Positions 9,106 to 49,515 of a stretch of DNA of 64,000 bases are shown here, in pieces. The stretch spans positions 57,285 to 121,284 of the forward strand of contig JAQYVY010000002.1 of the NCBI GenBank assembly GCA_030145195.1, in the 5' to 3' direction. Source of the DNA: Desulfuromonadales bacterium. GTDB taxonomy: Bacteria > Desulfobacterota > Desulfuromonadia > Desulfuromonadales > BM103. The translations under genes were made by a program, and so were the position numbers. Below the pieces are notes generated by a model. The model worked only from the letters and a program-made list of their open reading frames with translations, was not told where the DNA came from and made no database searches. How positions within the stretch are numbered: position 1 is the first letter of the stretch; each line of letters opens with the position of its first letter.

Positions 9106-9188
9106 CAACAACCCCATTACATGCTAAAGTGTCTATACCTTGCCTAGACAACACCGGCAATAACCCCGCAAACTTGAAAGGCCGCATC

Positions 9189-11354
9189 ATGTCTTCCCGC
9201 ACTACCAAGCTCGTTCTGATCGTAGCGATAACGATTCTGATCGTGGCTTTTTTCGCTTTTGACCTGCAGCGTTACCTGACTTTGGGCTACCTGAAAACAC
9301 AACAACTAGCCTTTGCTGATTTCTACACCACCAACCGACTGCTGACTATCGCCCTCTACTTTATTCTCTACATCGTGGTCACTGCGCTCTCTTTACCTGG
9401 GGCTGCAGTCATGACCCTGGCCGGTGGTGCCCTGCTCGGCTTCTGGACCGCCTTGGTGACCGTCTCCTTTGCCAGTTCCATTGGTGCCACCCTCGCCTTT
9501 TTGGCGTCACGGTTTCTGTTGCGCGACTGGGTGCAGAATAAATTTGCCAACAAGCTCAAGACCATCAACGAGGGGATTGAGCGTGAAGGCTCTTTCTATC
9601 TCTTTACCTTAAGACTGGTGCCACTCTTCCCCTTCTTCGCCATCAATCTGGCGATGGGCCTGACTCCGATGCGCACCGTCAGTTACTACTGGGTCAGCCA
9701 AGTAGGGATGCTTGCTGGCACCGCCGTCTACGTCAACGCCGGCACCCAACTCGGCCAGATTGAGAGCGCAGCGGGAATCCTCTCACCCGGCATCCTCCTT
9801 TCCTTCGCCCTGCTTGGCATCTTTCCACTGATTGCCAAACGAGTCATTCTGGAGATTGGGGAACGGATCCTGGATATCTCAAAACGCCGCGAAGCCTTCG
9901 AAGGCTGGGACAAACCTTCAAAATTCGACTACAACATCGTGGTCATCGGTGCCGGCTCCGGCGGGTTGGTTTCCGCTTACATTGCCGCTGCGGTTAAAGC
10001 AAAAGTTGCTTTGATTGAAAAGGATAAGATGGGCGGTGATTGCCTGAACACCGGCTGTGTCCCAAGCAAAGCCTTGATCCGTTCGGCCAAGATGCTTTCG
10101 TACGCTCACAGGGCCAAGGAGTTCGGCTTCGAGAAAGCCGACGTTGAATTTGATTTCGCCACTGTCATGGAACGCGTCCAGAAAATCATCGCGCAGGTCG
10201 AACCGCACGATTCAATCGAACGCTACAGCTCTTTAGGCGTCGAATGTCATACCGGCAGTGCGAACATCACCTCGCCCTGGAGCGTCGAAGTCAACGGCCA
10301 GACCCTGACCACCCGCAACATCGTGATTGCCACCGGTGCTCGACCGCTGGTGCCGCCCATCACCGGGCTTGACCAGATCGACTACCTGACCTCGGACAAT
10401 CTCTGGCAGCTCCGGGAGAACCCCGGCCGGCTCGTAGTGCTCGGCGGCGGCCCGATCGGTTCGGAAATGACCCAGGCCTTTGCCCGACTCGGTGCTGAAG
10501 TCACTCAGGTTGAGATGGCCCCGCGCATCATGGGGCGTGAGGATCCGGAAGTCTCTGCCTGCATCGAGCAGAAATTCGCGGCCGAAGGCATTCGCGTCCT
10601 GACCGGGCATGCGGCCAAAGAGGTGGTTCTGGAAGCTGGGCAAAAAATTCTCTGCTGCGAGGCCAACGGTGAAACGGTCAAGATCCCCTTCGACCAGATT
10701 CTGATCGCGGTTGGCCGACGACCGAATGTCACCGGTTTTGGCCTGGAAGAACTCGGAGTAGAACTCGCAGCAAGCGGAACGGTCGCCGTCGATCCGCTGT
10801 TGCGCACCAACTTTCCCAACATCTTTGCGGTCGGCGATGTCGCTGGCCCTTACCAGTTTACCCACACCGCCTCGCACATGGCCTGGTACGCCGCGGTGAA
10901 CGCCCTGTTTGGCGAATTCAAAGCCTTCAAGGTCGACTACAGCGTGATCCCCTGGGCCACCTTCACCGACCCCGAAGTTGCCCGGGTTGGTCTCTCTGAA
11001 GAGGAAGCTAAAGCCCAGGGCGTCGCTTATGAAATCACCCGTTTCGGCATCGACGATCTCGATCGGGCGATTGCCGATTCCGAAGATCACGGCTGGGTCA
11101 AGGTGCTCACCAAACCGGGCAAAGACAAGATTCTTGGCGTCACTATCGTTGGCAGTCATGCCGGAGATCTGCTCGCCGAATATGTTCTGGCGATGAAGCA
11201 CGGCCTTGGCCTCAACAAAATTCTCGGCACCATCCACACCTATCCGACCATGTCGGAAGCAAACAAGGCCGCGGCCGGAGAGTGGAAAAAGGCTCACGCC
11301 CCCGCGACCTTACTGAAATGGGTCGAGAAGTTTCACAGCTGGCGACGTGGGTGA
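9189..11354 (+). CDS. Fusion protein: TVP38/DedA-type membrane domain plus class-I pyridine nucleotide-disulfide oxidoreductase
   Basis: N-terminal about 230 aa have hydrophobic helices and the RLVPLFPFFAINLAMG motif. Then GAGSGG (FAD), redox-active GGDCLNTGCVPSK, GGGPIGSE (NAD(P)H) and the C-terminal dimerisation motif HTYPTMSE. ATG 9189 has GAAAGG upstream; the track start 9129 is GTG. Confidence 0.8.
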   Translation: MSSRTTKLVLIVAITILIVAFFAFDLQRYLTLGYLKTQQLAFADFYTTNRLLTIALYFILYIVVTALSLPGAAVMTLAGGALLGFWTALVTVSFASSIGATLAFLASRFLLRDWVQNKFANKLKTINEGIEREGSFYLFTLRLVPLFPFFAINLAMGLTPMRTVSYYWVSQVGMLAGTAVYVNAGTQLGQIESAAGILSPGILLSFALLGIFPLIAKRVILEIGERILDISKRREAFEGWDKPSKFDYNIVVIGAGSGGLVSAYIAAAVKAKVALIEKDKMGGDCLNTGCVPSKALIRSAKMLSYAHRAKEFGFEKADVEFDFATVMERVQKIIAQVEPHDSIERYSSLGVECHTGSANITSPWSVEVNGQTLTTRNIVIATGARPLVPPITGLDQIDYLTSDNLWQLRENPGRLVVLGGGPIGSEMTQAFARLGAEVTQVEMAPRIMGREDPEVSACIEQKFAAEGIRVLTGHAAKEVVLEAGQKILCCEANGETVKIPFDQILIAVGRRPNVTGFGLEELGVELAASGTVAVDPLLRTNFPNIFAVGDVAGPYQFTHTASHMAWYAAVNALFGEFKAFKVDYSVIPWATFTDPEVARVGLSEEEAKAQGVAYEITRFGIDDLDRAIADSEDHGWVKVLTKPGKDKILGVTIVGSHAGDLLAEYVLAMKHGLGLNKILGTIHTYPTMSEANKAAAGEWKKAHAPATLLKWVEKFHSWRRG

Positions 11355-11382
11355 GCTTGAGGATGCAACTATACAGCAGACC

Positions 11383-11409
11383 TTAACCACGGAGTCGCGG
11401 ACGCCCACC
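11383..11409. repeat. Degenerate copy of the dispersed repeat family
   Basis: TTAACCACGGAGTCGCGGACGCCCACC shares the TTAAC-CAC-GGAG start with the other copies. Confidence 0.35.
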
Positions 11410-11577
11410 TCACCCAGAGTGAATCGCCCCTGGTCTTGTAGACACTTCTGACTAATAACAAAACAAGCCACCTGCAGTCGTGCAGAGTGGCCTGTAGTAA
11501 TCGTTCAATTGTCCCACTAGATTCTCATCCACCACCAACACAGCACACCAACAGAGCCTAAATCCTTTTCATCACTG

Positions 11578-11988
11578 CTACTTGGTAAAGCCCTTGTCAA
11601 AACTCTTGATCGAGGCAATATCAGCAACCCAGGGCAGCATGTTTTCACAATGGAGATTAACCGCCGGCGTCACGCACTGGGGATCATCAAGAGAGCCAAC
11701 ATACACAATAAGCTTGCCCGGGGCCCGTTTGTGTTGGTTGAAAATCGGCGTTCCACAAGTCCCGCAGAAATGTTTTTTGGCCTTTTGAGAGATGAGATAA
11801 CCAACAAGAGCCCCTTTGCCCTGAGTCAGATGAAGACTCTTTTCATCAATGATGGCAAAAACTTCAAAAGGACCGCCGGTAGCTTTCTTACAGGTGTTGC
11901 AGTGGCAATTTCCGGAAAATTCAAAATCCGTACTGGTCGTGTATTTGACGGCGCCGCACAAGCAAGAACCGGTTGCTTTGATTGTCAT
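11578..11988 (-). CDS. GFA/CENP-V family protein (Zn-binding Cys motifs)
   Basis: 136 aa with GSCLCGAVKY, CHCNTCKK and CGTCGTPIF cysteine motifs typical of the GFA fold. Confidence 0.75.
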   Translation of the reverse strand: MTIKATGSCLCGAVKYTTSTDFEFSGNCHCNTCKKATGGPFEVFAIIDEKSLHLTQGKGALVGYLISQKAKKHFCGTCGTPIFNQHKRAPGKLIVYVGSLDDPQCVTPAVNLHCENMLPWVADIASIKSFDKGFTK

Positions 11989-12004
11989 TCTGTCGATCCT
12001 TTTC

Positions 12005-12289
12005 TTAAGTTTTATACGTTGTAATTACCACATTTGCCGCTTTATCCCGAAGAGAAATCAGCGATTGGTATTTTTCGGAACTGAACCAGTTATTCAATTC
12101 AAGCATATCTGAAAATTCTATGACAACCACAAGATCGTATTGGTGTTGACCAGCAAGCACCTGATCGAGTTGACCCCTGAACACAACTTTGCTGTCAAAG
12201 GGCGCGAGCGAGGCTTGTACTCCTGACACATATTTCTGCCAAAGCGCCTCATCTTTTACTAAGATATGTCCGATAAGGTATGCAGCCAC
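12005..12289 (-). CDS. DUF1330-like small protein
   Basis: 94 aa. The N-terminus AAYLIGHILVKDEALWQKYVSGV fits the DUF1330 pattern. The gene is strikingly AT-rich relative to its neighbours. Confidence 0.65.
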   Translation of the reverse strand: MAAYLIGHILVKDEALWQKYVSGVQASLAPFDSKVVFRGQLDQVLAGQHQYDLVVVIEFSDMLELNNWFSSEKYQSLISLRDKAANVVITTYKT

Positions 12290-12369
12290 TGGTTACTCCT
12301 GAATGTCTACCAGGAACGGGAGGTCCCATTCCACGATCGACCTGGACTCAACGGGCTATATCTATCCAT

Positions 12370-13200
12370 CTAATCACGGCTTGCGATTGCCAGGGCAATG
12401 CCGCCTAAAACCAGACTTGCCGAAACCAGCAACCGCCACGAAATCTCCTCGGCCAGAAGAACAACCCCACCACCTGCCGCCAGTACCGGAACCGCCAACT
12501 GGACCAGAGCCGCACGACTGGCGCTTAGACCGGCCAAAGCCTGATACCAGACAACGTAACCACAACCAGAAGCCAGCGCGCCGGAGAGAACCGCCAAAAC
12601 CGCCCCGCTGAAACTGATGTGCAGCGTGCTCATCCAAATCAGGCTGACAGGAAGCGCCAGCACCGCCGCACGGAAAAAATTCCCGGCTGTCTCGGCCAGG
12701 GGCTCGGCCTTGCTCCGCCCACGCAGGGAATAAATCCCCCAGGCGATTCCGGAAGCAGCCATCATCAGCCCAGCCAGGGGGTCGGGTGCGCTCAGTCCCG
12801 GCCAGAGCAGCCAGACCAGCCCGCTCATGGCCAGAAGAAAACCCACCCAGGCCTGAAACGCCAACCGCTCGCCACGGTACAGCGCCCAGAGCAGCATGGT
12901 CAATTGTACCAGACCAAACAAGATCAGGGCACCGGTTCCGGTATCCAGGCGGAGGTACGCAAACGAAAAGCTGGCGGCATAGATGAATAACATCACCGCT
13001 GAAGGCCAACTGCCGAGCAGGCGATTTTCGCCGCGCTTTTTCAGCAGGAAGAGGACCAGCAGCGCCACCGCGCCAGAGCACAAGCGGAGGGTTGTGAAAC
13101 TGGCCGCATCAATGCTTCCGGTTGCCAGAGCCAGACGGCAGAACACAGAGTTGGCAGCAAAGGCCACCAGCGTCAAACTTGTCAAAAAAAACAGTCTCAT
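12370..13200 (-). CDS. EamA/DMT-family transporter
   Basis: About 10 hydrophobic helices in two EamA-like halves. ATG 13200 (MRLFFLTSLTLVAF) is preferred over the track start 13401, whose extra 67 aa are non-hydrophobic. Confidence 0.75.
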   Translation of the reverse strand: MRLFFLTSLTLVAFAANSVFCRLALATGSIDAASFTTLRLCSGAVALLVLFLLKKRGENRLLGSWPSAVMLFIYAASFSFAYLRLDTGTGALILFGLVQLTMLLWALYRGERLAFQAWVGFLLAMSGLVWLLWPGLSAPDPLAGLMMAASGIAWGIYSLRGRSKAEPLAETAGNFFRAAVLALPVSLIWMSTLHISFSGAVLAVLSGALASGCGYVVWYQALAGLSASRAALVQLAVPVLAAGGGVVLLAEEISWRLLVSASLVLGGIALAIASRD

Positions 13201-34992: not shown

Positions 34993-35553
34993 TTATTCTA
35001 CCATGGCCGCGGCCTGCCGTAATAACGGTTTATCGCCAAGCCTAGCGACGGCAATCCAGAGTCCACGCAGACTGGCACCGGGGCAACGTTCGGCCAGGTG
35101 CTCGTATTCGGCACGCAGTTGCTGATCCAGTGCCTGCAAGCGAAAAGCCTCGGCAGGGTCTAAGCGGCCATCAAGCCGATCACAAAAGAAGGTGATACAG
35201 TTGTATGGCCGTCTGGACACGGGTAGCCGGCAACCTTCAGCACCAAGATAGGGACAGGCTTGCGAGAAGTCGGGAGCAGGAGGGTCTTGGTTCTGGAGCA
35301 GGTAGCCGAGCAGGTTGGTCAGGGTCACATGATGACGACCACAATCGCAGCAGGCACCATCACAACTTGTACACGATTCAATTCCGCCAGCCTTACAGAA
35401 GAGTTCGTCCAAAGCCAGCTGAACTGTTTCAATCACAGCAAGCCGCGCTTTGATCCAGCTTTTTTCAGCCGCGCTTAAAGATTCCAGCTCAGCCTTGATT
35501 CTCTCTAGCAAAGCCGGCCAATCCGGGTGAGTATTTTCATGCGGTTTCGTCAT
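34993..35553 (-). CDS. YkgJ/UPF0153-like cysteine-cluster protein
   Basis: CTSCDGACCDCG, CPYLGAEGCRLPVSRRPYNCITFFC pattern. ATG 35553 is preferred; the track start 35568 is TTG. Confidence 0.55.
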   Translation of the reverse strand: MTKPHENTHPDWPALLERIKAELESLSAAEKSWIKARLAVIETVQLALDELFCKAGGIESCTSCDGACCDCGRHHVTLTNLLGYLLQNQDPPAPDFSQACPYLGAEGCRLPVSRRPYNCITFFCDRLDGRLDPAEAFRLQALDQQLRAEYEHLAERCPGASLRGLWIAVARLGDKPLLRQAAAMVE

Positions 35554-35798
35554 AAGTGAACAAAGCAACTACGCTAGCAGCGTAAACGGTCCTGGATTTT
35601 GGCAACGATAAATTAGCTACGGTTTCAAGGGAGTCTTTAGCCTTTACGAAAGAAATCATTCTAGGCCGAGCGGATGAGAGTGTCAACGTCAGTCGATAGG
35701 GGCTCATGCTGACTGATTCTTTAAGGGAAGTGCTTAAAACGTGACTGAATTGTTACCGTCTGGATTCTTGTTTGAGGCAAGACGCTTGAAGACAAAGA

Positions 35799-36215
35799 TC
35801 AACCGGCCTGATCGAGCGCCTTTTTGCTCCGTATCTCCCGATACTCGCAGATGCCAGCCCGCAGAGCGCTGGCGGCAAGATTGGAACAGTGCAGCTTCTC
35901 ATCGGGGAGCCCGTCCAGGGCGGCGGCGATGCTCTCTTCCGTCACCTCTTCAAGCACCTGGTCGAGGGTTTTCCCACGGGCCATTTCACTCGCCACCGAA
36001 GAGGTGGCGATGGCCGCTCCACAACCGAAGATTTTGTATTTCATGTCGAGGATCGTGTCGTCCTCGATCTTGAGAAAAATCAGCAGGCCGTCGCCGCAAC
36101 CGGGATCGCCGACCTGCACCACCACGTTCGCATCCTCGATGGTGCCCACGTTGCGGGGGCTGGCAAAATGATCCATCACCTTGGCTGAATAAATAGAATT
36201 TTCCATGATTGACAT
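35799..36215 (-). CDS. IscU/NifU-N-type Fe-S cluster scaffold
   Basis: MDHFASPRNVG with three scaffold Cys (GDPGCGD, FGCGAAIATSS, LHCSNLA). ATG 36215 is chosen because the longer track ORF (to 36392) runs through a terminator hairpin. Confidence 0.8.
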   Translation of the reverse strand: MSIMENSIYSAKVMDHFASPRNVGTIEDANVVVQVGDPGCGDGLLIFLKIEDDTILDMKYKIFGCGAAIATSSVASEMARGKTLDQVLEEVTEESIAAALDGLPDEKLHCSNLAASALRAGICEYREIRSKKALDQAG

Positions 36216-36321
36216 ATTTCCATAAAATGGCTTGGCTATCGGTTCAAGTTCTGCCTCGGCGCAAACATCTCCACTCATCTTCGGCTTTCGGCCTGGTTGA
36301 TTTGACGACACATGCTTCATG

Positions 36322-36359
36322 AAAAAGGGCGGTACCAGAAGGGGCTCCGGTACCAGCCC
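36322..36359 (-). terminator. Rho-independent terminator closing the orp-like operon
   Basis: Minus strand reads GGGC-T-GGTACC, a 12-nt loop, then GGTACCGCCC followed by TTTTTC (plus-strand A-run 36322-36326, stems 36327-36336 and 36349-36359). Confidence 0.5.
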
Positions 36360-36441
36360 GAGGCCTCCAGCTCCTAACCCGTTCTGCGGCAAGGACGATC
36401 CGAAGCCTCAATTATTTATCGGCCAGGACCGATAACACGAG

Positions 36442-36687
36442 TTATTTATCGTTTTTTGACTGCTGTTGACGTCCCAAGCCGCGGCCGTCACCAGCGAAGC
36501 GACGGCGCTCTGAAACATCTACAAGACCTTTCCGACCACCTCTCAGACCTTGTCCCCGTCCGAGGCCGGGCGTAGTTACGTTTTCCTGTTTTTTGTCGGA
36601 TGGTTTAGCAGTCTGATTGCATAAGCCAAAACCACCACCGGTTGCAGGCCCTTTTCCGAGAGGACCTTTTTTGTTATACCCAGGCAT
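36442..36687 (-). CDS. DUF5320-like Gly/Arg-rich small protein
   Basis: The N-terminus MPGYNKKGPLGKGPATGGGFGLC matches my memory of the DUF5320 signature (MPxxDxTGPxGxGPxTGRGxGxC). Perfect SD AAGGAGG upstream. Confidence 0.65.
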   Translation of the reverse strand: MPGYNKKGPLGKGPATGGGFGLCNQTAKPSDKKQENVTTPGLGRGQGLRGGRKGLVDVSERRRFAGDGRGLGRQQQSKNDK

Positions 36688-36852
36688 AATGACCTCCTTT
36701 TACTGATAGTTGTTTCCACCCGGACAGCTTGCCGAAAACAGGCGGTGCAGAATATCGTCTATGCTTCCAGGTGGTCTGTCTGTCATACCTAGCGCCAGAT
36801 CTTTTCGCCTCGTCTTTCCCCTTTGCCCCTGTGTGTTAAACCCTGGGTTTAA

Positions 36853-37713
36853 TCATAAGTCTATTTCCGCCAGGCGACTGGCCAGGGTCGCCAGGGCCGC
36901 GGCGGCGGGGGAGTCACCGCGATCGACCACCGGCTCGCCGCGCCGGGCACAGGCACCAACCTCTGGATCGTAGGGGATCTTGGCCAACAGCGGCACTCGC
37001 CGTCGCATACATTCGTCGCTGACCTGCGCGGCAAAGGCCGGGGCCAGATCTGCCTTGTTGATGCAGGCATAGGCGGAGATGCCGAAATGAGCAGCCAAAT
37101 CGAGAAGTCGACACAGGTCGTGCAGACCAGAGGCGCTCGGTTCAGCGACCGCCAACAGGGCATCGTTACCAGCCAACGCCGCCATCGTCGGGCAACCCGT
37201 TCCGGGGGGACCATCACAGAGGAGCCAGCGCACCTGTTGCTCCTTCGCGAGTCGGGTGGCCTCTTCCTTGAGGAGGCTGACCAGCTTTCCAGAATTGCCA
37301 GCACCGGGGAGGAGCCGAGCTCCTAGCACAGTGCCACAGTCTGCCGTGCCAACTGACCAATAACCACCCACATGATCGATCATCTGTAACGCCTGCTCGG
37401 GGCAGGCCAGGGCGCAGAGGCCGCAGCCTTCGCAGGAGAGAGAACGCACGGTCCCTGCGGCAATAGCGTGAAACCGGCACAGTGCTGTGCATCTGCCGCA
37501 ACCACTGCAGCGGGTCTCGTCACAATAGGCCATCCGGCCGCCGACAAAGGGAACCTCAGGGCCGAACGTCGGTTGCAACACCAGGTGCAGGTTGGCGGCA
37601 TCGACATCGGTATCCACACACAGCACCTCTCCCCGCCAGTGGGTCGCCAGCGCAGCGGAGACGGTGGTTTTGCCGGTTCCCCCCTTACCGCTCAATACGA
37701 CGAGTTTCGTCAT
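36853..37713 (-). CDS. MinD/ParA-type P-loop ATPase with inserted 2x[4Fe-4S] ferredoxin motifs (paralogue B)
   Basis: Deviant Walker A SGKGGTGKTT, CSGCGRCTALC and CEGCGLCALACP, and DGPPGTGC. Its ATG overlaps the stop of paralogue A (ATGA). Confidence 0.85.
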   Translation of the reverse strand: MTKLVVLSGKGGTGKTTVSAALATHWRGEVLCVDTDVDAANLHLVLQPTFGPEVPFVGGRMAYCDETRCSGCGRCTALCRFHAIAAGTVRSLSCEGCGLCALACPEQALQMIDHVGGYWSVGTADCGTVLGARLLPGAGNSGKLVSLLKEEATRLAKEQQVRWLLCDGPPGTGCPTMAALAGNDALLAVAEPSASGLHDLCRLLDLAAHFGISAYACINKADLAPAFAAQVSDECMRRRVPLLAKIPYDPEVGACARRGEPVVDRGDSPAAAALATLASRLAEIDL

Positions 37714-38573
37714 GGCGTCTTCCCACCGGCCTCATGGGACTGCAACATCTCCCAGAGCCGAACCAGTTGCGCCCCCCAGGCCGGGTCGATCCTGTTCAGC
37801 GGTACCGCCTCCGCTCCGCGCTCGGCCAACTGCCGATCAAAGGGGATCTCCAACAACACCGGAACACCCCGCGCCCGACACAGAGCCCTGATACCAGAGT
37901 CCTCGTCGTTTGCCTTATTAATGACCACCGCCGCCGGAACCTCCAGGGTGTCAAGGACATCAAGGACGGCAGTCAAGTCGTGCAGACCAAATAGGGTCGG
38001 TTCAGTCACCACTAGCGCGGCATCGGCACCGTCGGCCGCCGCGATCAAAGCACAAGAGGTTCCCGGCGGGCCGTCAATAATCACCGGCGTATCTGCCTGC
38101 GTAGCCTCAAGCACCGCCTCGATCACCGGCACGGAGCGGGGCTCGCCAACCGTCAACTCCCCCCAGATCAGTTCCACGCCAGCGACCGTCCCCTTTTGCA
38201 ACCGGCCGACGGATCGCGGCACCTCCATCAGGGCCTGCTGGGGGCAGGCATAGAGGCAGGCCCCACAGGAATGGCAATGCTCGGCAAAAATCTCCAGGTG
38301 GTCTCCGAAGAGCGCCAGGGCACCAAAGTCGCAGGCACGCTTGCACGCTCCGCACGCTGTGCAGTCCTTCGGGTCCCAGACCGGTACCAACACCGATATC
38401 TCCCTTTTGACAAGAGTGCCTAGCTGCAGGTAAAGGTGCGCGTTCGGCTCCTCCACATCGCAGTCGAGTAAAGTCACAGCGGTGCCTTGCGCTTCGGCCA
38501 AGGCGCACGCAAGTCCAACGCTGAGGGTCGTCTTGCCCGTTCCTCCCTTGCCACTAACAACGCAGAGTTTCAC
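37710..38573 (-). CDS. MinD/ParA-type P-loop ATPase with inserted 2x[4Fe-4S] ferredoxin motifs (paralogue A)
   Basis: SGKGGTGKTT, CTACGACKRAC, CHSCGACLYACP and DGPPGTSC. GTG 38573 (VKLCVVSGKGG, 10 nt after the upstream stop) is preferred over track start 38624, which overlaps the upstream gene. Confidence 0.8.
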   Translation of the reverse strand: MKLCVVSGKGGTGKTTLSVGLACALAEAQGTAVTLLDCDVEEPNAHLYLQLGTLVKREISVLVPVWDPKDCTACGACKRACDFGALALFGDHLEIFAEHCHSCGACLYACPQQALMEVPRSVGRLQKGTVAGVELIWGELTVGEPRSVPVIEAVLEATQADTPVIIDGPPGTSCALIAAADGADAALVVTEPTLFGLHDLTAVLDVLDTLEVPAAVVINKANDEDSGIRALCRARGVPVLLEIPFDRQLAERGAEAVPLNRIDPAWGAQLVRLWEMLQSHEAGGKTP

Positions 38574-38583
38574 GATATTCGAC

Positions 38584-38967
38584 CTAACCGTGGGAGTGAG
38601 CGCCGCAGACATCCCCATCGACAATGGGACGGACCTGGCAGGTCTGATACGCCGCGATCACCTCGGCGACGGTCTCTCCCGGGCCGACCAGCACGTCGAT
38701 TCCAGCTTGGGCGAACCCCATCCGAGGCCGCATGCCGATTCCGGCCACCACCAGCGCCGTCGCCCCGGCCTGGGAGAGAATCTGCACCGGCACCAGGCAC
38801 CCACCTTCCGAGTGTTCGACATTGGGCACGGATAACACTGAATCGATCTCGCCGTTCTTCATCGACACCAAGGTGAAAATATCGCAGCGCCCAAAATGCC
38901 CCGAACGCCCGGCATCCATACCGCCAGGATGATTCGAAGGGATTGCTATGACCTGTACATTTGACAT
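38584..38967 (-). CDS. NifX/NifB-C-terminal-like (dinitrogenase FeMo-cofactor-binding fold) protein 3
   Basis: 127 aa. VIAIPSN.., HFGRCDIFTLV and ALVVAGIGMRPRMGFAQAGIDV are typical of the fold. C-terminal CGAHSHG. Confidence 0.8.
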   Translation of the reverse strand: MSNVQVIAIPSNHPGGMDAGRSGHFGRCDIFTLVSMKNGEIDSVLSVPNVEHSEGGCLVPVQILSQAGATALVVAGIGMRPRMGFAQAGIDVLVGPGETVAEVIAAYQTCQVRPIVDGDVCGAHSHG

Positions 38968-39004
38968 GATTTTTCTCCTTTTGAGCGCTAATGGTTATGT
39001 TGTA

Positions 39005-39364
39005 TCAAGGGGCTCCGACAGCCATGTCGGCACTCGCTTCGGTCAAGCCTCCTGCGCAAAAAATCTGTAAAGCCTCCTGCACTGTCCCCTTGGCTCCGTG
39101 CATCACCCTGACCCCCGCCGCATCCAGCGCCCGGAAAGCCTTGGGGCCGGTAACACCGGTAATCAGGACTGTGGCTTGGTGATCGGAAACGAGCTGGGCC
39201 GCCTGGATGCCCGCTCCCTGCATCGCGTTGCGGGCGACAGAGTTTTCCAGGGCCTCCCAGCTGTCGTCAACCTCGTCGTAAATGAGTATCCAGTACGCCC
39301 TGCCAAACCGCTCATCGACGCTGCTCTCCGGTGTCTCGCCCTGCGATGTAACGGCAATTTTCAT
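39005..39364 (-). CDS. NifX/NifB-C-terminal-like protein 2
   Basis: MKIAVTSQG.., RFGRAYWILIY and VLITGVTGPKAFRALDAAGVRV. ATG 39364 overlaps the stop of the upstream gene (ATGA). Confidence 0.8.
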   Translation of the reverse strand: MKIAVTSQGETPESSVDERFGRAYWILIYDEVDDSWEALENSVARNAMQGAGIQAAQLVSDHQATVLITGVTGPKAFRALDAAGVRVMHGAKGTVQEALQIFCAGGLTEASADMAVGAP

Positions 39365-39780
39365 GATGATTCTCCCTCGCCATCCCGAGGCAAACAGCCC
39401 CAACTCCTCCGCCGGGGTCCGCATTCGGTATGGCCGACAAAAGCGTTAACGTCCTGGAGCCACCGGCAGAGGACCTCTTCTACCTCTCCCCGGAAGCCCC
39501 ACACCACCTCGATCCCTTCGTCACCCAAGGCGACCTGAAACCGGGGGTGAATCCCCCCGCAGAGGACCGTGCAAACACCCTCGTCGTGCAGCCAGCGCAC
39601 GAGTTGGGGCTCCTCGACACGATCCCAGATACGCCGTTGCAGACCGCTCACGCTCCGACCGGCCAAACCGACCTCGGCGAAGACAAATTCCCGCGCCTGG
39701 CCGAAACGGGGCAAGACCCGACTGCCATAACAGGGAACAGCGATCAGCACATCAGCTGTGGTCGGTGAGTTCGTGCTCAT
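39361..39780 (-). CDS. NifX/NifB-C-terminal-like protein 1 with Cys/His/Arg-rich tail
   Basis: VLIAVPCYGSRVLPRFGQAREFVFAEV and TVLCGGIHPRFQVALGDEGIEVV. Tail HTECGPRRRSWGCLPRD. ATG 39780 is preferred over 39828. Confidence 0.7.
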   Translation of the reverse strand: MSTNSPTTADVLIAVPCYGSRVLPRFGQAREFVFAEVGLAGRSVSGLQRRIWDRVEEPQLVRWLHDEGVCTVLCGGIHPRFQVALGDEGIEVVWGFRGEVEEVLCRWLQDVNAFVGHTECGPRRRSWGCLPRDGEGESS

Positions 39781-39793
39781 ATCCCTGAGTACT

Positions 39794-39808
39794 CCAAGGA
39801 CCGTGCCG
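39794..39808 (-). promoter_or_regulatory. Imperfect sigma-54 -24/-12-like element
   Basis: Minus strand reads CGGCACG-GTCC-TTGG against consensus TGGCACG-N4-TTGC. It lies about 105 bp downstream of the 22-bp palindrome. However, the -12 has GG instead of GC, and it overlaps the likely SD of the first gene. Confidence 0.25.
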
Positions 39809-39902
39809 AAAGCTACAGTCAGCAACAAATAGATAAAAACTGCGTAATTTTAGCAAGATAGACTGGAGAGGAAGGAGAGTAGATCAAAAAGGAGGGGCTT
39901 GC

Positions 39903-39924
39903 TACTGTTGCAGATGCAACAGTA
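39903..39924. promoter_or_regulatory. Perfect 22-bp palindrome, candidate activator binding site (UAS)
   Basis: TACTGTTGCA-GA-TGCAACAGTA, perfect 10-2-10 dyad. The inner 16 bp fit TGT-N10-ACA. Confidence 0.55.
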
Positions 39925-39970
39925 AGTTTTGCGGAACAATGAAAATATATATTAGGTTTCAGTCAGTTAG

Positions 39971-40030
39971 AGACAATGCAAAGACTCGCGCATCCGTTGC
40001 AGACAATGCAACACCTGCAACGGATGCAAC
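39971..40030. promoter_or_regulatory. Array of TGCAAC/GTTGCA half-sites with nested inverted and direct repeats
   Basis: GTTGCA at 39996; TGCAAC at 40007, 40016 and 40025; TGCAAA at 39977. 12-bp inverted repeat GCATCCGTTGCA (39990-40001) / TGCAACGGATGC (40016-40027). 11-nt direct repeat AGACAATGCAA at 39971 and 40001, exactly 30 bp apart. Confidence 0.55.
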
Positions 40031-40123
40031 ATAGACAAGACAACAACAGCCGCCTAAAATCCAAAAGTTTTCCGCTTTTTACACGATAAATTCAATCTGT
40101 GCGTATTCCGTCCATCCCCGCCG

Positions 40124-41155
40124 TTACCATCCCATAAGAATGCCCACCAGCCCAACCACCACCCCCACGATGAAGTTGATCCCCTTGACCCGGAAAAAAT
40201 CCAGCCGCGACTCGGCGAGGAGTGGCAGCATGCCGTGACCATCCTGAACGATGGAACTGGCGAGGAGGACGCTGAAGGGGACGACCCCCTGGGCGTAGAG
40301 GGTGAGAAAGACCAGGTGCGGCCCAGACTCAGGGACCAGCCCAACGACGCAGGCCAACACCACCAGCAGCAGGGGATTGTCGGCGATCCAGTCGCCCAGG
40401 TTCAGGTAGGTCAACAGCACGTGCATTAGCAGGATGGCGCCGAAGGTCCAGAGAAAGATCTTCGGCACGTGGACCCGGGCCACATGCTGCCACAGATGTT
40501 CTTTGAGAAAGTGATCGGGAACGGTGGCGACGATGAACAACCCCACGGATGTCGTCAGCAACAAGGTCACCCGGAGCCAACTCCACTCGGCTGGTCCGAG
40601 GCGTCCCGCGCCCAAGCCCAAGGCAAAGAGGCTCAACACCAGCATCAGTACGGCTCGGGCCAATGAGCAGTGTCGCCATTGCTCGAGAATCATGCCGCGG
40701 GGGAAACAGTTGCACGTCTCCTGCTCGTGGTAGAGCATGCCCCCCCCTTCCATCTCGCAGCCACCCCGGCCCGGCCCGGCGAGTAGATCGGTTAGCACCC
40801 CCGCCAGCAGACCGATGACCAGCAGCAACAGAAAGACCCACAGCGCCGTTTCGGGAATCATCGACAGCATGACAAAGGCTTCGTCACCGCTGGTGGCGAC
40901 CATGGCGGCGACGACCGCCCCCAGTGACACCACCCGGTGGGAATAAAGGGAGACAACCGCGAAGGCCCCGAGGCAGCCGGGAGTGACACCGAGGAGTACC
41001 GCAAGCAAATACTGCTGCCAGCGGCTGCCGCTCAGCCCCCGTTGCCAGACCCCCTGGGTGAGGACGTTGAGGTATTCGATGACCAGCATCATCCCGAAGA
41101 CGAAGCCGGTGATCATCAGGGCGTGGGCCAGACTGTCGAGAAGGGTATCGATCAT
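40124..41155 (-). CDS. 10-TM membrane protein, tentatively ArsP_2/DUF2899-like putative metal(loid) permease
   Basis: 343 aa with about 10 hydrophobic segments. The N-terminus MIDTLLDSLAHALMITGFVFGMMLVIEYLNV resembles my memory of that family. Central loop GGCEMEGGGMLYHEQETCNCFPRG. Confidence 0.5.
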   Translation of the reverse strand: MIDTLLDSLAHALMITGFVFGMMLVIEYLNVLTQGVWQRGLSGSRWQQYLLAVLLGVTPGCLGAFAVVSLYSHRVVSLGAVVAAMVATSGDEAFVMLSMIPETALWVFLLLLVIGLLAGVLTDLLAGPGRGGCEMEGGGMLYHEQETCNCFPRGMILEQWRHCSLARAVLMLVLSLFALGLGAGRLGPAEWSWLRVTLLLTTSVGLFIVATVPDHFLKEHLWQHVARVHVPKIFLWTFGAILLMHVLLTYLNLGDWIADNPLLLVVLACVVGLVPESGPHLVFLTLYAQGVVPFSVLLASSIVQDGHGMLPLLAESRLDFFRVKGINFIVGVVVGLVGILMGW

Positions 41156-41183
41156 GATGGTTTCACCAGGAAAAGACTTCGAG

Positions 41184-42521
41184 TTACTCGGTCTGCTGGA
41201 GCTTCAGCCAGCGCCAGAGGGTGGTGCGGTTCACCCCCAACTCCTGAGCAGCGAGGGTGCGGTTACCGCCATGGCGACGCAGCATCTGCTGCAGATGCTC
41301 GGCGGCAGGAACCGTCCCGCTCGGCACCAGCGACGGTAAGGCCGCCCGTATTTGGGGGAAGAGTTCAGCAGGCAGTATATCGCTTTTTGAAAGGATCACA
41401 GCCCGCTCGACGATATTGAGAAGCTCCCGTACATTCCCCAAATAGGGTTGGTCGAGGAGCAGGCTCAGGGCTTCGGCAGAAAAACCGCGGATCTTCTTGC
41501 CGTAGCTGCGGTTGAAGCGGTCGATGGCCATGTCGAGAAGGAGGGGGATGTCTTCGGGGCGTTCGCGCAAGGGGGGAATCTTCAGGTTAACGACGTTGAT
41601 ACGAAAAAACAAGTCGCGGCGAAAGGTCCCTTCGTCGACCATCACCTCCAGATCCCTGTGGGTGGCGGCAAGAAAGCGAACGTTAGCGGTCCGCGAACGC
41701 TTGGCGCCTAAGGGCTGATATTCGCGGTTTTCGAGGACCCGCAGCAGCTTGACCTGTAGCGACAGGGGGAGATCGCCGATTTCATCGAGAAACAGGGTCC
41801 CATTTTCCGCCTGTTCCAGTCGGCCGGGACGATCTTCAACTGCCCCCGTATAGGCCCCCTTTTTGGCACCAAAGATCTCCGACTCAAGGAGGGGTTCGGG
41901 AAGCGCGCCGCAATTCACCACCACCAGCGGTCCCTTGCGCTTCGGGCTGAGATCGTGCAAAGCCTGGGCGAAGAGTTCCTTGCCGGTGCCGCTCTCCCCC
42001 TGTAGCAGCACCGTGGCCCCACTCGCCGCCACATCGGGAAGAACGTCGAACAATCGGCGCATAGCGGGATGACGGCTGATCAGATCGTGAAAAGTGTATT
42101 TCCCCTCGACTTCACGCTTCAGTGCCTGCAGTTGGGATAAATCACGAAAGGTCTCGACCCCGCCGACAGCCCGCCCGGCTCCATCCCGCAGCACCGAGGC
42201 GCTTACCGAGATCGGAACCTCGCGGTTGTTTTTGTCCAGGATATCAACCTCACGATTGCCCACGTTTTTGCCGCTGGCCATCGCCTCGCGCACCGGGCAG
42301 CCGGTGAAACAGATACTGCTACGAAAGATCTCGCAGCAGCTTTGCCCCAACGCTTCGTCCCGGTTGAAGCCAGTGATCTCCTCGGCGGCCCGGTTGAACC
42401 AGGTGATCCGCATCTCGGCATCGACGGTGAAGACGCCATCGGCGACACTGTCGAGGATGGTCGAAAGATGAGACTGTTGGTCAAGGGGAGGACTTTGCAT
42501 AGACCAAAAGATACCATGCAC
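41184..42521 (-). CDS. Sigma-54-dependent transcriptional activator (PAS, AAA+, Fis-type HTH)
   Basis: PAS (ILDSVADGVFTVDAEMRITWFNRAAEEITG), Walker A GESGTGKELFA, sigma-54 contact loop GAKKGAYTGA (GAFTGA variant), ELFPRI-type region, and C-terminal HTH LAAQELGVNRTTLWRWLK. The start is either GTG 42521 or ATG 42500. Confidence 0.9.
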   Translation of the reverse strand: MHGIFWSMQSPPLDQQSHLSTILDSVADGVFTVDAEMRITWFNRAAEEITGFNRDEALGQSCCEIFRSSICFTGCPVREAMASGKNVGNREVDILDKNNREVPISVSASVLRDGAGRAVGGVETFRDLSQLQALKREVEGKYTFHDLISRHPAMRRLFDVLPDVAASGATVLLQGESGTGKELFAQALHDLSPKRKGPLVVVNCGALPEPLLESEIFGAKKGAYTGAVEDRPGRLEQAENGTLFLDEIGDLPLSLQVKLLRVLENREYQPLGAKRSRTANVRFLAATHRDLEVMVDEGTFRRDLFFRINVVNLKIPPLRERPEDIPLLLDMAIDRFNRSYGKKIRGFSAEALSLLLDQPYLGNVRELLNIVERAVILSKSDILPAELFPQIRAALPSLVPSGTVPAAEHLQQMLRRHGGNRTLAAQELGVNRTTLWRWLKLQQTE

Positions 42522-42819
42522 TCATTAATTTTCAAACACAAACCGAGCCGCAACATTCAGGGTTCAGAGTCCAGAAAGTGCCCCTTTTCCCCCTGCTTTC
42601 GCCAGCGGATTGCGGCGCGGGTTCAAAAGGATAAGCCTGTCCCGGTCAAAAGCCAGAGGATAAGGGTCCGTATGATTTCACTGCTGGCGTAGATGTGCTC
42701 GTCCTCCGAAAGGTGTTCTCCCGAAGTATCCATGTAAGCGAGCCCAGCTATATTGAACGCGGTCAATACAGCTGGAAATTCAACAGAAGTCAGAGGCTCC
42801 CTTAGCGGTGCCTATTGCT

Positions 42820-46923: not shown

Positions 46924-47395
46924 AGTGGCCGAAGATAACAGTAAGCCGGGTTCTGTTCCCCGCAACGGTTACCCGTTTCGGAGCGACGATCATTCCTCTA
47001 GGACCATTGTTGCCAATGGCCTCAAGCAGCCAACCCGGGAGTCTCGGACGGGCCGTCCTCAAACACTCCCCTATTCGGCCTTGCTCCGGATGGGGTTTAC
47101 CGAGCTGCCGACGTCACCGCCAGCACTGGTGAGCTCTTACCTCACCCTTTCACCCTTACTCCACCTACGCCACCGCAAGCGGCGGCTACGGCGGACAGGC
47201 CTTTCACATGGATCGGCTCGTTCGCCGAAGCTATAGCGAAGGAGAAGCGGTCTTCTCTCTGTGGCACTTTCCCTGGGGTTGCCCCCGGTCCCCGTTAAGG
47301 ACCATCCTGCCCTGCGGAGCCCGGACTTTCCTCCCGTCCACCAAGGCCCAATTAAGGACAACGGTAAACCGGCGATCGCCTGGTTATCTCCGACC
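46924..47395 (-). ncRNA. rnpB: RNase P RNA, bacterial type A
   Basis: Minus strand contains GGGAGGAAAGTCCGGGCTCC, GTAAGGGTGAAAGGGTGAGGTAAGAGCTCACC, GGTAAACCCCATCCGGAGCAAGGCCGAATAGGGG and ACAGAACCCGGCTTAC. The 5' GGTCGGAGATAAC pairs with the 3' GTTATCTTCGGCC (P1, including G-U pairs). Confidence 0.92.
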
Positions 47396-49439: not shown

Positions 49440-49515
49440 TGGTGGGCCCACCAGGGTTCGAACCTGGGACCGACCGGTTATGAGCCGGTGGCTCTTCCAA
49501 CTGAGCTATGGGCCC
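49440..49515 (-). tRNA. tRNA with CAT anticodon (elongator Met, or Ile2 if lysidine-modified)
   Basis: Minus strand reads GGGCCCATAGCTCAGTTGGAAGAGCCACCGGCTCATAACCGGTCGGTCCCAGGTTCGAACCCTGGTGGGCCCACCA. 7-bp acceptor stem, GCTC/GAGC D stem, ACCGG/CCGGT anticodon stem, loop CTCATAA, T arm CCAGG-TTCGAAC-CCTGG, and an encoded CCA. Confidence 0.92.

Follow-up and report, generated by a model that had tools for sequence, protein, structure and literature searches.

In Desulfovibrio vulgaris Hildenborough, the Orp ("orange protein") gene cluster (DVU2103-DVU2109) consists of two divergent operons, with the genes orp5-orp4-orp3 and orp7-orp8-orp9, and of the gene for the regulator OrpR (DVU2106). OrpR was shown to bind a redox-sensitive [4Fe-4S] cluster in its PAS domain and to be active only at low redox potential; the cluster site comprises the conserved C52, C61 and C65 and an acidic residue at position 54, mutation of the cysteines or deletion of the PAS domain leads to constitutive expression, and the regulon defined by ChIP-seq consists of the two orp operons only (PMC8359166). 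Previous work also showed that Orp3, Orp4 and Orp8 co-purify with Fe-S clusters and that MrpORP (Orp9) can load them (PMC6345978), and the same paper cites a relative of Orp5 that binds a [2Fe-2S] cluster (Maiti 2016). According to the literature, the orange protein itself binds a Mo/Cu sulfide cluster. Work on Orp comes from a single Desulfovibrio lineage and has left its function open, which gives some value to the locus analyzed here. It lies on the minus strand at positions 36322-42521 of a 64,000-nucleotide stretch of a Desulfuromonadales genome (contig JAQYVY010000002.1), referred to below as the window.

Like the D. vulgaris cluster, this locus encodes a PAS/AAA+/HTH sigma-54 activator with a C-x-[DE]-x6-C-x3-C triad, an orange-protein homologue along with other proteins of the Nitro_FeMo-Co fold, two MinD-type ATPases with two [4Fe-4S] motifs each, and a small protein starting MP.GD (DUF5320, probably Orp5); it likewise has a sigma-54 promoter (predicted in the window) with upstream palindromic enhancer sites and possibly a site for integration host factor (IHF), and it shares the restriction to anaerobes. 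Unlike the two divergent operons of D. vulgaris, the window has one colinear operon downstream of the regulator, without the Mrp/NBP35-NifX fusion (Orp9/MrpORP), and it has an ArsP_2 permease gene between regulator and operon and a NifU_N scaffold gene downstream, which are absent from the D. vulgaris cluster as described. A first-pass annotation made from the sequence alone had proposed an Orp-like operon with its own sigma-54 activator, and that reading was borne out by the OrpR cysteine triad, by NifX-2 being nearest to the D. gigas orange protein, by recurrence of the gene core, and by conserved promoter and enhancer elements. Our results indicate that the Orp gene cluster described earlier in anaerobes is present here in a Desulfuromonas-type version, and an Orp-type ("orange protein complex") cluster governed by an OrpR-type regulator is the best explanation of the data, one that we consider likely to be right. 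The locus thus adds another member to a known, still poorly understood system and not a new type of system. Its make-up is a variant typical of the lineage, with ArsP_2 and NifU genes and without an Mrp gene in the window.

Regulator and gene content of the locus

The regulator gene, orpR (41184-42500, minus strand, as are all genes of the locus), matched Pfam PAS, Sigma54_activat (221 bits), AAA_lid_14 and the Fis-type HTH_8. Here and below, every domain assignment is a Pfam match above the curated cut-offs, with NCBIfam searched in addition; all of the profile matches that had been predicted for the locus (Nitro_FeMo-Co, ParA/CbiA with Fer4, DUF5320, ArsP_2 and Sigma54_activat) were obtained. 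The regulator reading frame was originally drawn as 41184-42521 and can be extended to GTG 42521, but its start is most likely ATG 42500, which gives 438 aa; relatives align from residue 8 on, and the orthologue in a Trichloromonas sp. (locus L086) also has 438 aa. Numbered from the GTG, the PAS domain contains C62-x-E64-x6-C71-x3-C75, the spacing of C52/E54/C61/C65 in D. vulgaris OrpR, with the positions for comparison taken from PMC8359166 and not from an alignment to DVU2106. When 18 homologous PAS domains were aligned, the three cysteines were invariant and the +2 residue was always Asp or Glu. Judged by this sensor motif, the regulator is an OrpR orthologue; the published Fe-S redox sensing by OrpR was absent from the first-pass annotation. 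The nearest relative of its PAS domain was found in a Trichloromonas metagenome-assembled genome (MAG; 84%). The two regulators differ in the GAFTGA loop, which reads GAYTGA in the window and GAFTDA in D. vulgaris.

A scan of the PAS alignment over species-representative genomes returned at least 594 loci, and the best 80, which do not include the D. vulgaris locus, were annotated with jackhmmer. These 80 came from Thermodesulfobacteriota, Planctomycetota, Acidobacteriota, Ignavibacteria, Zixibacteria, Lentisphaerota and others. NifX-like genes were present near orpR in 61 of them, DUF5320 genes in 25, a MinD/Fer4 pair in 22, an Mrp-like ATPase in 18 and NifU_N in 12. OrpR-type Fe-S redox sensors and their NifX / MinD-ferredoxin / DUF5320 targets are therefore spread over many anaerobic phyla. 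In 58 of the loci, the sequence extends 2 kb or more to either side of orpR; 40 of these carried NifX, DUF5320, MinD/Fer4 or NifU genes on the same strand directly downstream of orpR and only one (L069) had a divergent layout like that of D. vulgaris. The colinear arrangement, which had been listed as a distinguishing trait, is thus a real difference from D. vulgaris but the common layout among OrpR loci and no peculiarity of the window.

The three NifX-like genes, nifX1 (39361-39780), nifX2 (39005-39364) and nifX3 (38584-38967), encode single-domain Nitro_FeMo-Co proteins of 119-139 aa (45, 73 and 66 bits, respectively) with pI values of 5.4, 4.6 and 5.3 and no Gly-rich tail; against the NCBIfam model MrpORP they matched in its C-terminal part only, far below the cut-off. 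NifX-2 (119 aa) is the orange-protein (Orp8) homologue: its best solved relative was the D. gigas orange protein (2WFB; E 2.9e-19, residues 2-109 against 6-114), followed by TM1290 and MTH1175, and it has no conserved Cys. NifX-3 is TM1816-like, with TM1816 as its nearest solved relative (PDB 1O13/1T3V; E 1.5e-11), and alignment showed conserved GHFGRCD, EHSEGGC and C-terminal DVCGAHSHG motifs. NifX-1 had no relative among solved structures. It belongs to a subfamily marked by LPRFG and CGGIHPRF, which supplies the commonest first gene after orpR among the OrpR loci and in which nearly all aligned members end in a Cys and an Arg-rich tail. The Cys/Arg tail previously noted in NifX-1 is present, with a C-terminus of ...SWGCLPRDGEGESS, but it is a hallmark of this subfamily and not a local feature, and the stretch quoted for it was not the extreme C-terminus.

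The paralogous ATPase genes minD/fer-1 (37710-38573, with a GTG start at 38573) and minD/fer-2 (36853-37713) each matched CbiA/ParA and two Fer4 stretches. Both products combine a SIMIBI P-loop domain, having the deviant Walker A sequence SGKGGTGKT, with an inserted 2x[4Fe-4S] ferredoxin domain, and correspond to Orp3/Orp4 by this architecture only. Their nearest solved relatives were archaeal MinD proteins, no solved structure with the MinD plus inserted 2x[4Fe-4S] architecture was found in the structure search, and minD/fer-2 had more than 7900 homologues at E <= 1e-10. A perfect palindrome, TTAAACCC-A-GGGTTTAA, occupies 36836-36852 directly 3' of the minD/fer-2 stop codon. An attenuator in the 165-nt spacer between minD/fer-2 and the DUF5320 gene was considered and dropped, because the spacer is not unusually structured (folding z = +0.77).

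The DUF5320 gene (36442-36687; 38 bits) encodes a protein of 81 aa with a pI of 10.8, 23% Gly and a single Cys in MPGYNKKGPLGKGPATGGGFGLC. Members of this family are Gly/Arg/Trp/Tyr-rich, have a single Cys and share the N-terminal signature MP[RGY]GD[GR]TGP.G.GP.TGR.AG.C in our alignment. The published figure of the D. vulgaris orp2 promoter shows that orp5 opens with ATG CCA TAC GGA GAT, i.e., MPYGD, and these five residues, the only ones compared, fit the signature. DUF5320 thus probably represents the Orp5 family, and the window protein is a probable Orp5 counterpart on the strength of this match. The earlier view of the DUF5320 gene as an addition to the Orp gene set is therefore probably wrong, and the 25 OrpR loci with such genes speak against it as well. 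Locus L005 has a DUF5320 gene directly after minD/fer-2, as does the window. Literature searches on DUF5320 and COG1149 yielded nothing useful. We also observed ORP-like NifX domains fused to a Gly/Arg (GRGM-repeat) tail in L039 (3086-3733, minus strand) and L016 (14760-15179); the GRGM tail of the L039 fusion is followed by a coiled coil, as in the C-terminal half of long DUF5320 proteins, and the composition of both tails resembles that of the cationic tail of the thioferrate-storage protein IssA.

Direct reading of the junctions confirmed the layout that had been given for the genes, all of which are present in the order and at the coordinates claimed. ATGA start/stop overlaps join nifX1 to nifX2 (39361-39364) and minD/fer-1 to minD/fer-2 (37710-37713), a 10-nt gap (38574-38583) separates nifX3 from the GTG of minD/fer-1, orpR lies 28 nt from the permease gene, and a 343-bp spacer precedes nifX1. 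A 37-nt gap with an AGGAG site lies 5' of nifX3, AGGAGG precedes the DUF5320 gene, and the internal genes have good Shine-Dalgarno sites. The hairpin and T-run terminator that had been proposed was also found by a scan, which placed it at 36355-36330; the element as a whole (36322-36359, minus strand) has an 11-bp stem, GGTACCGGAG...CTTCTGGTACC, followed by CCCTTTTT, and the 136 nt 3' of the DUF5320 gene fold far better than shuffled sequences (z = -3.75, 0 of 200 shuffles as good). Directly past the terminator, a gene that had gone unmentioned (35799-36206, minus strand; NifU_N, 132 bits) encodes a NifU_N / IscU-type Fe-S scaffold. The three cluster-ligand Cys, the Asp and the His are present in its product, which is 83% identical to the NifU_N protein at the end of the L086 locus and 66% identical to that of the first gene of the L005 operon. 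It is probably an associated component of the Orp locus.

The comparison of gene neighborhoods supported the unit as a whole, with the gene string conserved at the same lengths and overlaps in related genomes. The core nifX1-nifX2-nifX3-minD/fer1-minD/fer2 recurs with the same overlaps in two groundwater Deltaproteobacteria MAGs (L001-L003), where the gene products have 135-142, 119, 126, 288-290 and 288-316 aa, respectively. A Thermodesulfobacteriota MAG (L005) has the order orpR-nifU-nifX1-nifX2-nifX3-minD/fer1-minD/fer2-DUF5320, in which NifU_N opens the operon, and the Trichloromonas locus (L086) reads DUF134-orpR-arsP_2-(CDF remnant)-nifX1-nifX2-nifX3-ParA-M23-nifU, with 60-83% identity to the window proteins (CDF, cation diffusion facilitator). 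Thus, such loci can lack the Mrp carrier and have a gene for a NifU-type scaffold close by, and a single colinear operon is usual. As a side observation, genes for carbon monoxide dehydrogenase (CODH; Prismane) and acetyl-CoA synthase (CdhC) directly follow the MinD/Fer4 pair in the related MAGs, and MoaE adjoins in both (L003 8932-13106; L001 8948-9343; L003 5130-5525). These neighbors are possible hints of client enzymes or of a molybdenum link.

Regulatory DNA and promoter-to-start spacing

The 343-bp spacer upstream of nifX1 contains 4 of the window's 20 copies of the heptamer TGTTGCA within 126 bp (39906-40031). The proximal enhancer is a perfect palindrome, TGTTGCA-TC-TGCAACA (39906-39921, minus strand), about 105 bp upstream of the -24 element, and a distal upstream activating sequence (UAS) cluster (39990-40031, minus strand) consists of TGTTGCA and CGTTGCA half-sites and a 13-bp inverted repeat, GCATCCGTTGCAG...CTGCAACGGATGC. 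A comparable array of direct half-sites is present in L086. The palindrome GTTGCA-N2-TGCAAC was also found in L003, where it precedes nifX1, and in L007, L011, L013 and L014, where it comes shortly after orpR, and variants of it lie upstream of nifX1 in L001, L006 and L086. Downstream of its orpR gene, locus L014 (Desulfuromonadaceae) has four such palindromes, at 11347-12904, and two sigma-54-like promoters, at 11606 and 13004, a pattern that suggests two OrpR-controlled transcription units. Between enhancer and promoter, a candidate IHF site, TATCTATTTGTTG (39823-39835, minus strand), has one mismatch to WATCAANNNNTTR; it is a weak, single match, placed similarly to the IHF site at -43 of D. 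vulgaris orp2 (PMC3897727).

The predicted sigma-54 (-24/-12) promoter, CGGCAC-GGTCC-TTGGA (39793-39808, minus strand), ends 12 nt before the nifX1 ATG and is the only -24/-12 candidate downstream of the palindromes in the spacer. Matching motifs are found at the same place in L001/L002 (CGGCACGCCGTTCGCA), L003 (CGGCACGGCTCTTGTA), L006 (TGGCACGATCCGTGTA) and L086 (AGGCATGTTATTTGAA), and the canonical TGGCAC-N5-TTGCA occurs in more distant OrpR loci. Overall, strong sigma-54-like motifs were enriched about 5-fold in the 1.8 kb downstream of orpR (50 of 164, compared to 6% expected).

The distance from promoter to first gene was short in a large part of the 38 pairs that we measured: it was 12-13 nt in 15 pairs and 10-17 nt in about 22, from several phyla, and 23-39 nt in the rest, several of which have a visible ribosome-binding site. 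Besides the window (39781-39808), short spacings were seen in L001, L003, L006, L009, L011-L014, L016, L017, L019, L028, L029, L032, L049, L051, L053, L075, L079, L080 and L086, and the spacing of 12-13 nt spans lineages from Thermodesulfobacteriota to Planctomycetota and Ignavibacteria. The start codons of these first genes are credible, because a conserved M-K/R-I/V-A-I/V-P strand comes directly after them. With the C of the -12 element placed at -12, the ATG would begin at about +3 or +4, and the 12-nt spacing of the window leaves no space for a Shine-Dalgarno leader. Taking a leader of 5 nt or fewer as leaderless, this spacing implies that the sigma-54 transcripts of the short-spacing OrpR loci would be leaderless. 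In contrast to the window, where the promoter abuts the start codon, the published promoter figure of the D. vulgaris orp operons shows short leaders with Shine-Dalgarno sites. A literature search found no account of sigma-54-driven leaderless transcripts, which does not prove that none exists; if they are real, they would be an unusual pairing of promoter class and translation mode. A candidate sigma-70-type promoter for orpR itself, TTGAAA-16-TATCTT (42508-42535, minus strand), matched 9 of 12 positions in a consensus scan and is weak alone. Its -10 box ends 7 nt before ATG 42500, and the orpR mRNA may also be leaderless.

The ArsP_2 permease and its neighbors

The polytopic membrane protein encoded between orpR and the operon (40124-41155, minus strand) is a full-length, well-conserved member of the ArsP_2 / DUF2899 family, matching ArsP_2 (PF11449) with 119 bits against a cut-off of 32.5 and the NCBIfam model NF037962 ('arsenic_eff') with 139 bits against 100. 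It is 60-80% identical to the 120 homologues listed, 96 of which have 343 aa like the query. Across 42 homologues, C61, TSGDE, H143, C150, PESGPHL and VQDGHG were invariant and C148 nearly so, and the cytoplasmic loop H-x4-C-x-C-F was conserved. The database names of such proteins, 'arsenic efflux', 'manganese transporter' and '10TM heavy-metal exporter', are annotation labels and not the results of tests.

A membrane protein tied to the regulator had been singled out as a difference from D. vulgaris, and this difference is real and recurs in Desulfuromonadales: the orpR-arsP_2 pair was found again in L004 and L086. Furthermore, ArsP_2 genes adjoined NifX-domain genes in all seven of the other contexts that we examined. 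The neighbors were NifX, DUF5320, CGGC, NifX, MinD/Fer4, radical SAM, methyltransferase, MinD/Fer4 and Mrp in Syntrophotalea carbinolica DSM 2380 (L084), NifX and two MinD/Fer4 genes in Malonomonas rubra (L085), and orpR, a CDF remnant and nifX1-nifX2-nifX3 in Trichloromonas sp. (L086). Four MAGs gave a CDF transporter fused to a C-terminal Nitro_FeMo-Co domain (L087), a NifX fragment and a CDF gene within 5 kb (L088, a weaker case), a CDF-NifX fusion with a ParA-like ATPase, NifX and two MinD/Fer4 genes (L089), and a CDF-NifX fusion with a ParA/Mrp-like ATPase (L090). NifX-domain genes, CDF-NifX fusions and Mrp/MinD ATPases are accordingly the recurring neighbors of this family, which indicates that the permease is a recurrent partner of NifX-domain proteins. 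The CDF-Nitro_FeMo-Co fusions have about 402 aa and lie at 8038-9249 in L087, 8036-9244 in L090 and 14221-15032 in L089; the L086 remnant between arsP_2 and nifX1 (9132-9467) retains 111 aa of such a gene.

The conserved permease with its Cys-rich loop is thus part of the neighborhood in Desulfuromonadales, and the transporter, the scaffold and the cationic single-Cys protein provide concrete handles on the function of the Orp complex. If true, the partnership of ArsP_2 and CDF-NifX proteins would make Orp a system for membrane-linked trafficking or buffering of iron (or other metal) sulfide and not a cell-division factor. We tentatively propose, with more doubt than conviction, that leaderless redox-gated sigma-54 transcripts (12-13 nt spacing) and the partnership of ArsP_2 and CDF-NifX proteins with NifX / MinD-ferredoxin genes are general properties of OrpR regulons. 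The promoter-to-start-codon spacing and the ArsP_2 link are not described in the Orp literature that we searched, may be general, and are two leads worth following.

Proposed mechanism, rival explanations and surrounding DNA

By homology with D. vulgaris, OrpR would carry a [4Fe-4S] cluster in its PAS domain and be active only at low redox potential. It would then bind TGTTGCA-N2-TGCAACA, about 105 bp upstream, and the distal half-site array, and use ATP to open the predicted sigma-54 promoter CGGCAC-N5-TTGGA. Judged by position, the transcript, effectively leaderless with the promoter ending 12 nt before the nifX1 ATG, would span the coupled genes nifX1-nifX2-nifX3-minD/fer1-minD/fer2, the 165-nt spacer and the DUF5320 gene, up to the strong terminator. 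The two MinD-type ATPases, with two [4Fe-4S] sites each, may form an ATP-dependent, redox-active core, as Orp3/Orp4, which would associate with the orange-protein homologue, the two Cys-bearing NifX paralogues and the cationic single-Cys DUF5320/Orp5-type protein. So assembled, the proteins could carry or hand over a metal-sulfur cluster of the Fe-S or the thiometallate kind. The downstream NifU-type scaffold might feed in Fe-S units, replacing the Mrp/Orp9 carrier missing from the window, and the ArsP_2 permease, whose gene is predicted to share a transcript with orpR, would transport the metal ion or anion concerned through the membrane.

Several points weigh against this reading. Neither an rpoN gene nor a gene for an Mrp/NBP35-NifX protein (Orp9/MrpORP) was seen in the 64-kb window, the latter by jackhmmer and the Pfam/NCBIfam survey; the missing Orp9 gene had escaped the first-pass annotation. 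The window enhancer, TGTTGCA-N2-TGCAACA, differs from the D. vulgaris OrpR site, GGGCGYRTTTTGCGCCC, which indicates that DNA specificity has diverged. The -12 element of the promoter, itself predicted from sequence, reads TTGG instead of TTGC, and because the -12 C is replaced by G the promoter is weak on its own. With the NifU gene beyond the terminator and the DUF5320 gene beyond an unstructured 165-nt spacer, co-transcription of both is uncertain. The AlphaFold model of the permease (pLDDT 76.5) resembled no solved structure significantly; its best matches were SLC13/NaS1, YdaH, INDY and TRAP (TM 0.38-0.45, E >= 0.012), which is a faint hint that the modeled fold might be that of an elevator-type anion carrier, and no characterized ArsP_2 member was found in the literature searched. 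The proposed orthology to Orp3/4/5/7 rests on domain architecture, motifs and five N-terminal residues of Orp5. Finally, what the Orp complex does is not settled even for D. vulgaris, in which a role in cell division has been suggested (PMC6345978, PMC4641369).

That suggestion, together with the polar location of MrpORP (PMC6345978, PMC4641369), the MinD-type deviant Walker A of both ATPases and their archaeal MinD relatives, could be taken to mean that the locus is a cell-division or positioning module, in which the ATPases would position the division site or a complex at the cell pole, with the small proteins as adaptors. We consider this improbable: no minC, minE or other division gene lies nearby, a division phenotype could be indirect, and the ferredoxin insert, the Fe-S content of the D. 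vulgaris complex and the NifX, NifU and transporter neighbors all point to metal-cluster chemistry. An arsenic or heavy-metal resistance operon, with the permease as an efflux pump, ArsA-like ATPases and small metallochaperones, is just as improbable. The database names of the permease, its conserved C-x-C loop and the CDF and P-type metal ATPases common near its homologues would suit such an operon, as would Pfam ArsA_ATPase matches in both ATPases, although these are weak (21-25 bits) and limited to some 30-35 residues of the P-loop. However, ArsP_2 is a Pfam family separate from that of the characterized organoarsenical efflux permease ArsP (ArsP_1/PF03773), the names are labels, neither the locus nor the window contains an ArsR, ArsC, ArsB/Acr3, ArsA or ArsD partner, and the regulator is a predicted redox sensor and not a metal sensor. 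Least probable of all, and very much so, is a set of accessory genes for maturation of the nitrogenase cofactor, i.e., carriers like NifX, NafY and the NifB C-terminus serving nif genes elsewhere in the genome. Nitrogenase cofactor assembly does combine Nitro_FeMo-Co carriers (NifX/NafY/NifB) with a SIMIBI-class ATPase bearing [4Fe-4S] (NifH) and a NifU scaffold, all three small proteins match Nitro_FeMo-Co, a NifU_N gene is adjacent, and the regulator scored 306 bits against the NCBIfam NifA model, below its cut-off of 529. Nevertheless, no nifHDKENB genes are present in the 64 kb, a radical-SAM NifB domain is missing, the ATPases resemble MinD, carry a ferredoxin insert and are not NifH, and the regulator has the OrpR PAS triad and no NifA GAF domain; the nearest solved relatives of the small proteins are ORP, MTH1175 and TM1816 and not NifX or NafY, and many phyla have loci with this gene string, often accompanied by DUF5320 and MinD/Fer4 genes, but no nif genes were present in those flanks that were inspected.

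Buffering and trafficking of iron or iron sulfide is a more specific version of the Orp explanation rather than a different identity, and we give it a small but not negligible chance. Its model is IssA of Pyrococcus furiosus, a thioferrate iron-sulfur storage protein of the Nitro_FeMo-Co / IPR003731 fold family with a cationic Gly/Arg/aromatic tail holding a single Cys (PMC5524996). Under reducing conditions rich in Fe(II) and sulfide, the NifX-fold and DUF5320 proteins would bind anionic iron-sulfide species, the ATPases would load and unload them, and the ArsP_2 permease would carry iron through the membrane. MTH1175, a relative of NifX-2, belongs to the IssA clade (PMC5524996), the DUF5320 protein has the composition of the IssA tail, so that the cationic Gly/Arg-rich single-Cys element that is a tail in IssA would be a separate protein in the window, and the L039 fusion described above is a natural case of an ORP-like domain with a GRGM-repeat/coiled-coil tail. 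The CDF-NifX fusions next to ArsP_2 genes (L087, L089 and L090) and the activity of OrpR at low redox potential only (PMC8359166) are also in agreement with it. On the other hand, the likeness of DUF5320 to the IssA tail is compositional only, and the NifX paralogues, being acidic and without a Gly-rich tail, fall outside the IssA clade, which is defined by a pI >= 9, <5 Cys and >=20% Gly in the last 40 residues (PMC5524996 supplement). In addition, the Orp5 relative is cited as binding [2Fe-2S] and not thioferrate (in PMC6345978), and the orange protein carries a Mo/Cu sulfide cluster.

As to the DNA around the Orp-type locus, the Pfam/NCBIfam survey found no nif, Mrp or molybdenum genes across the rest of the window, in agreement with the non-nif context first proposed; what it found was housekeeping, including topA, trmFO, the 2-oxoglutarate dehydrogenase complex, lipoate genes, rpoD, dnaG, mutS2, the his operon and RNase P RNA. 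An Rfam search gave no riboswitch or RNA family within the locus. Beyond the NifU_N gene, a 191-aa protein with 12 Cys and the patterns C.SC.G.CC.C...H and CP.L...C...RP..C..F.C is encoded at 34993-35568 (minus strand), preceded by a near-consensus TTGACA-17-TAGAAT at 35658-35686; neither Pfam nor NCBIfam gave a match for it, none of the related loci contained a homologue, and it was left out of the system. The G+C content of 36000-42000 is 0.59-0.60, compared to 0.53 on one side and 0.49-0.56 on the other, and the locus may have been acquired by transfer. RNase P RNA (class A, 306 bits) and a tRNA gene lie on the minus strand at 46927-47391 and 49443-49515, respectively.

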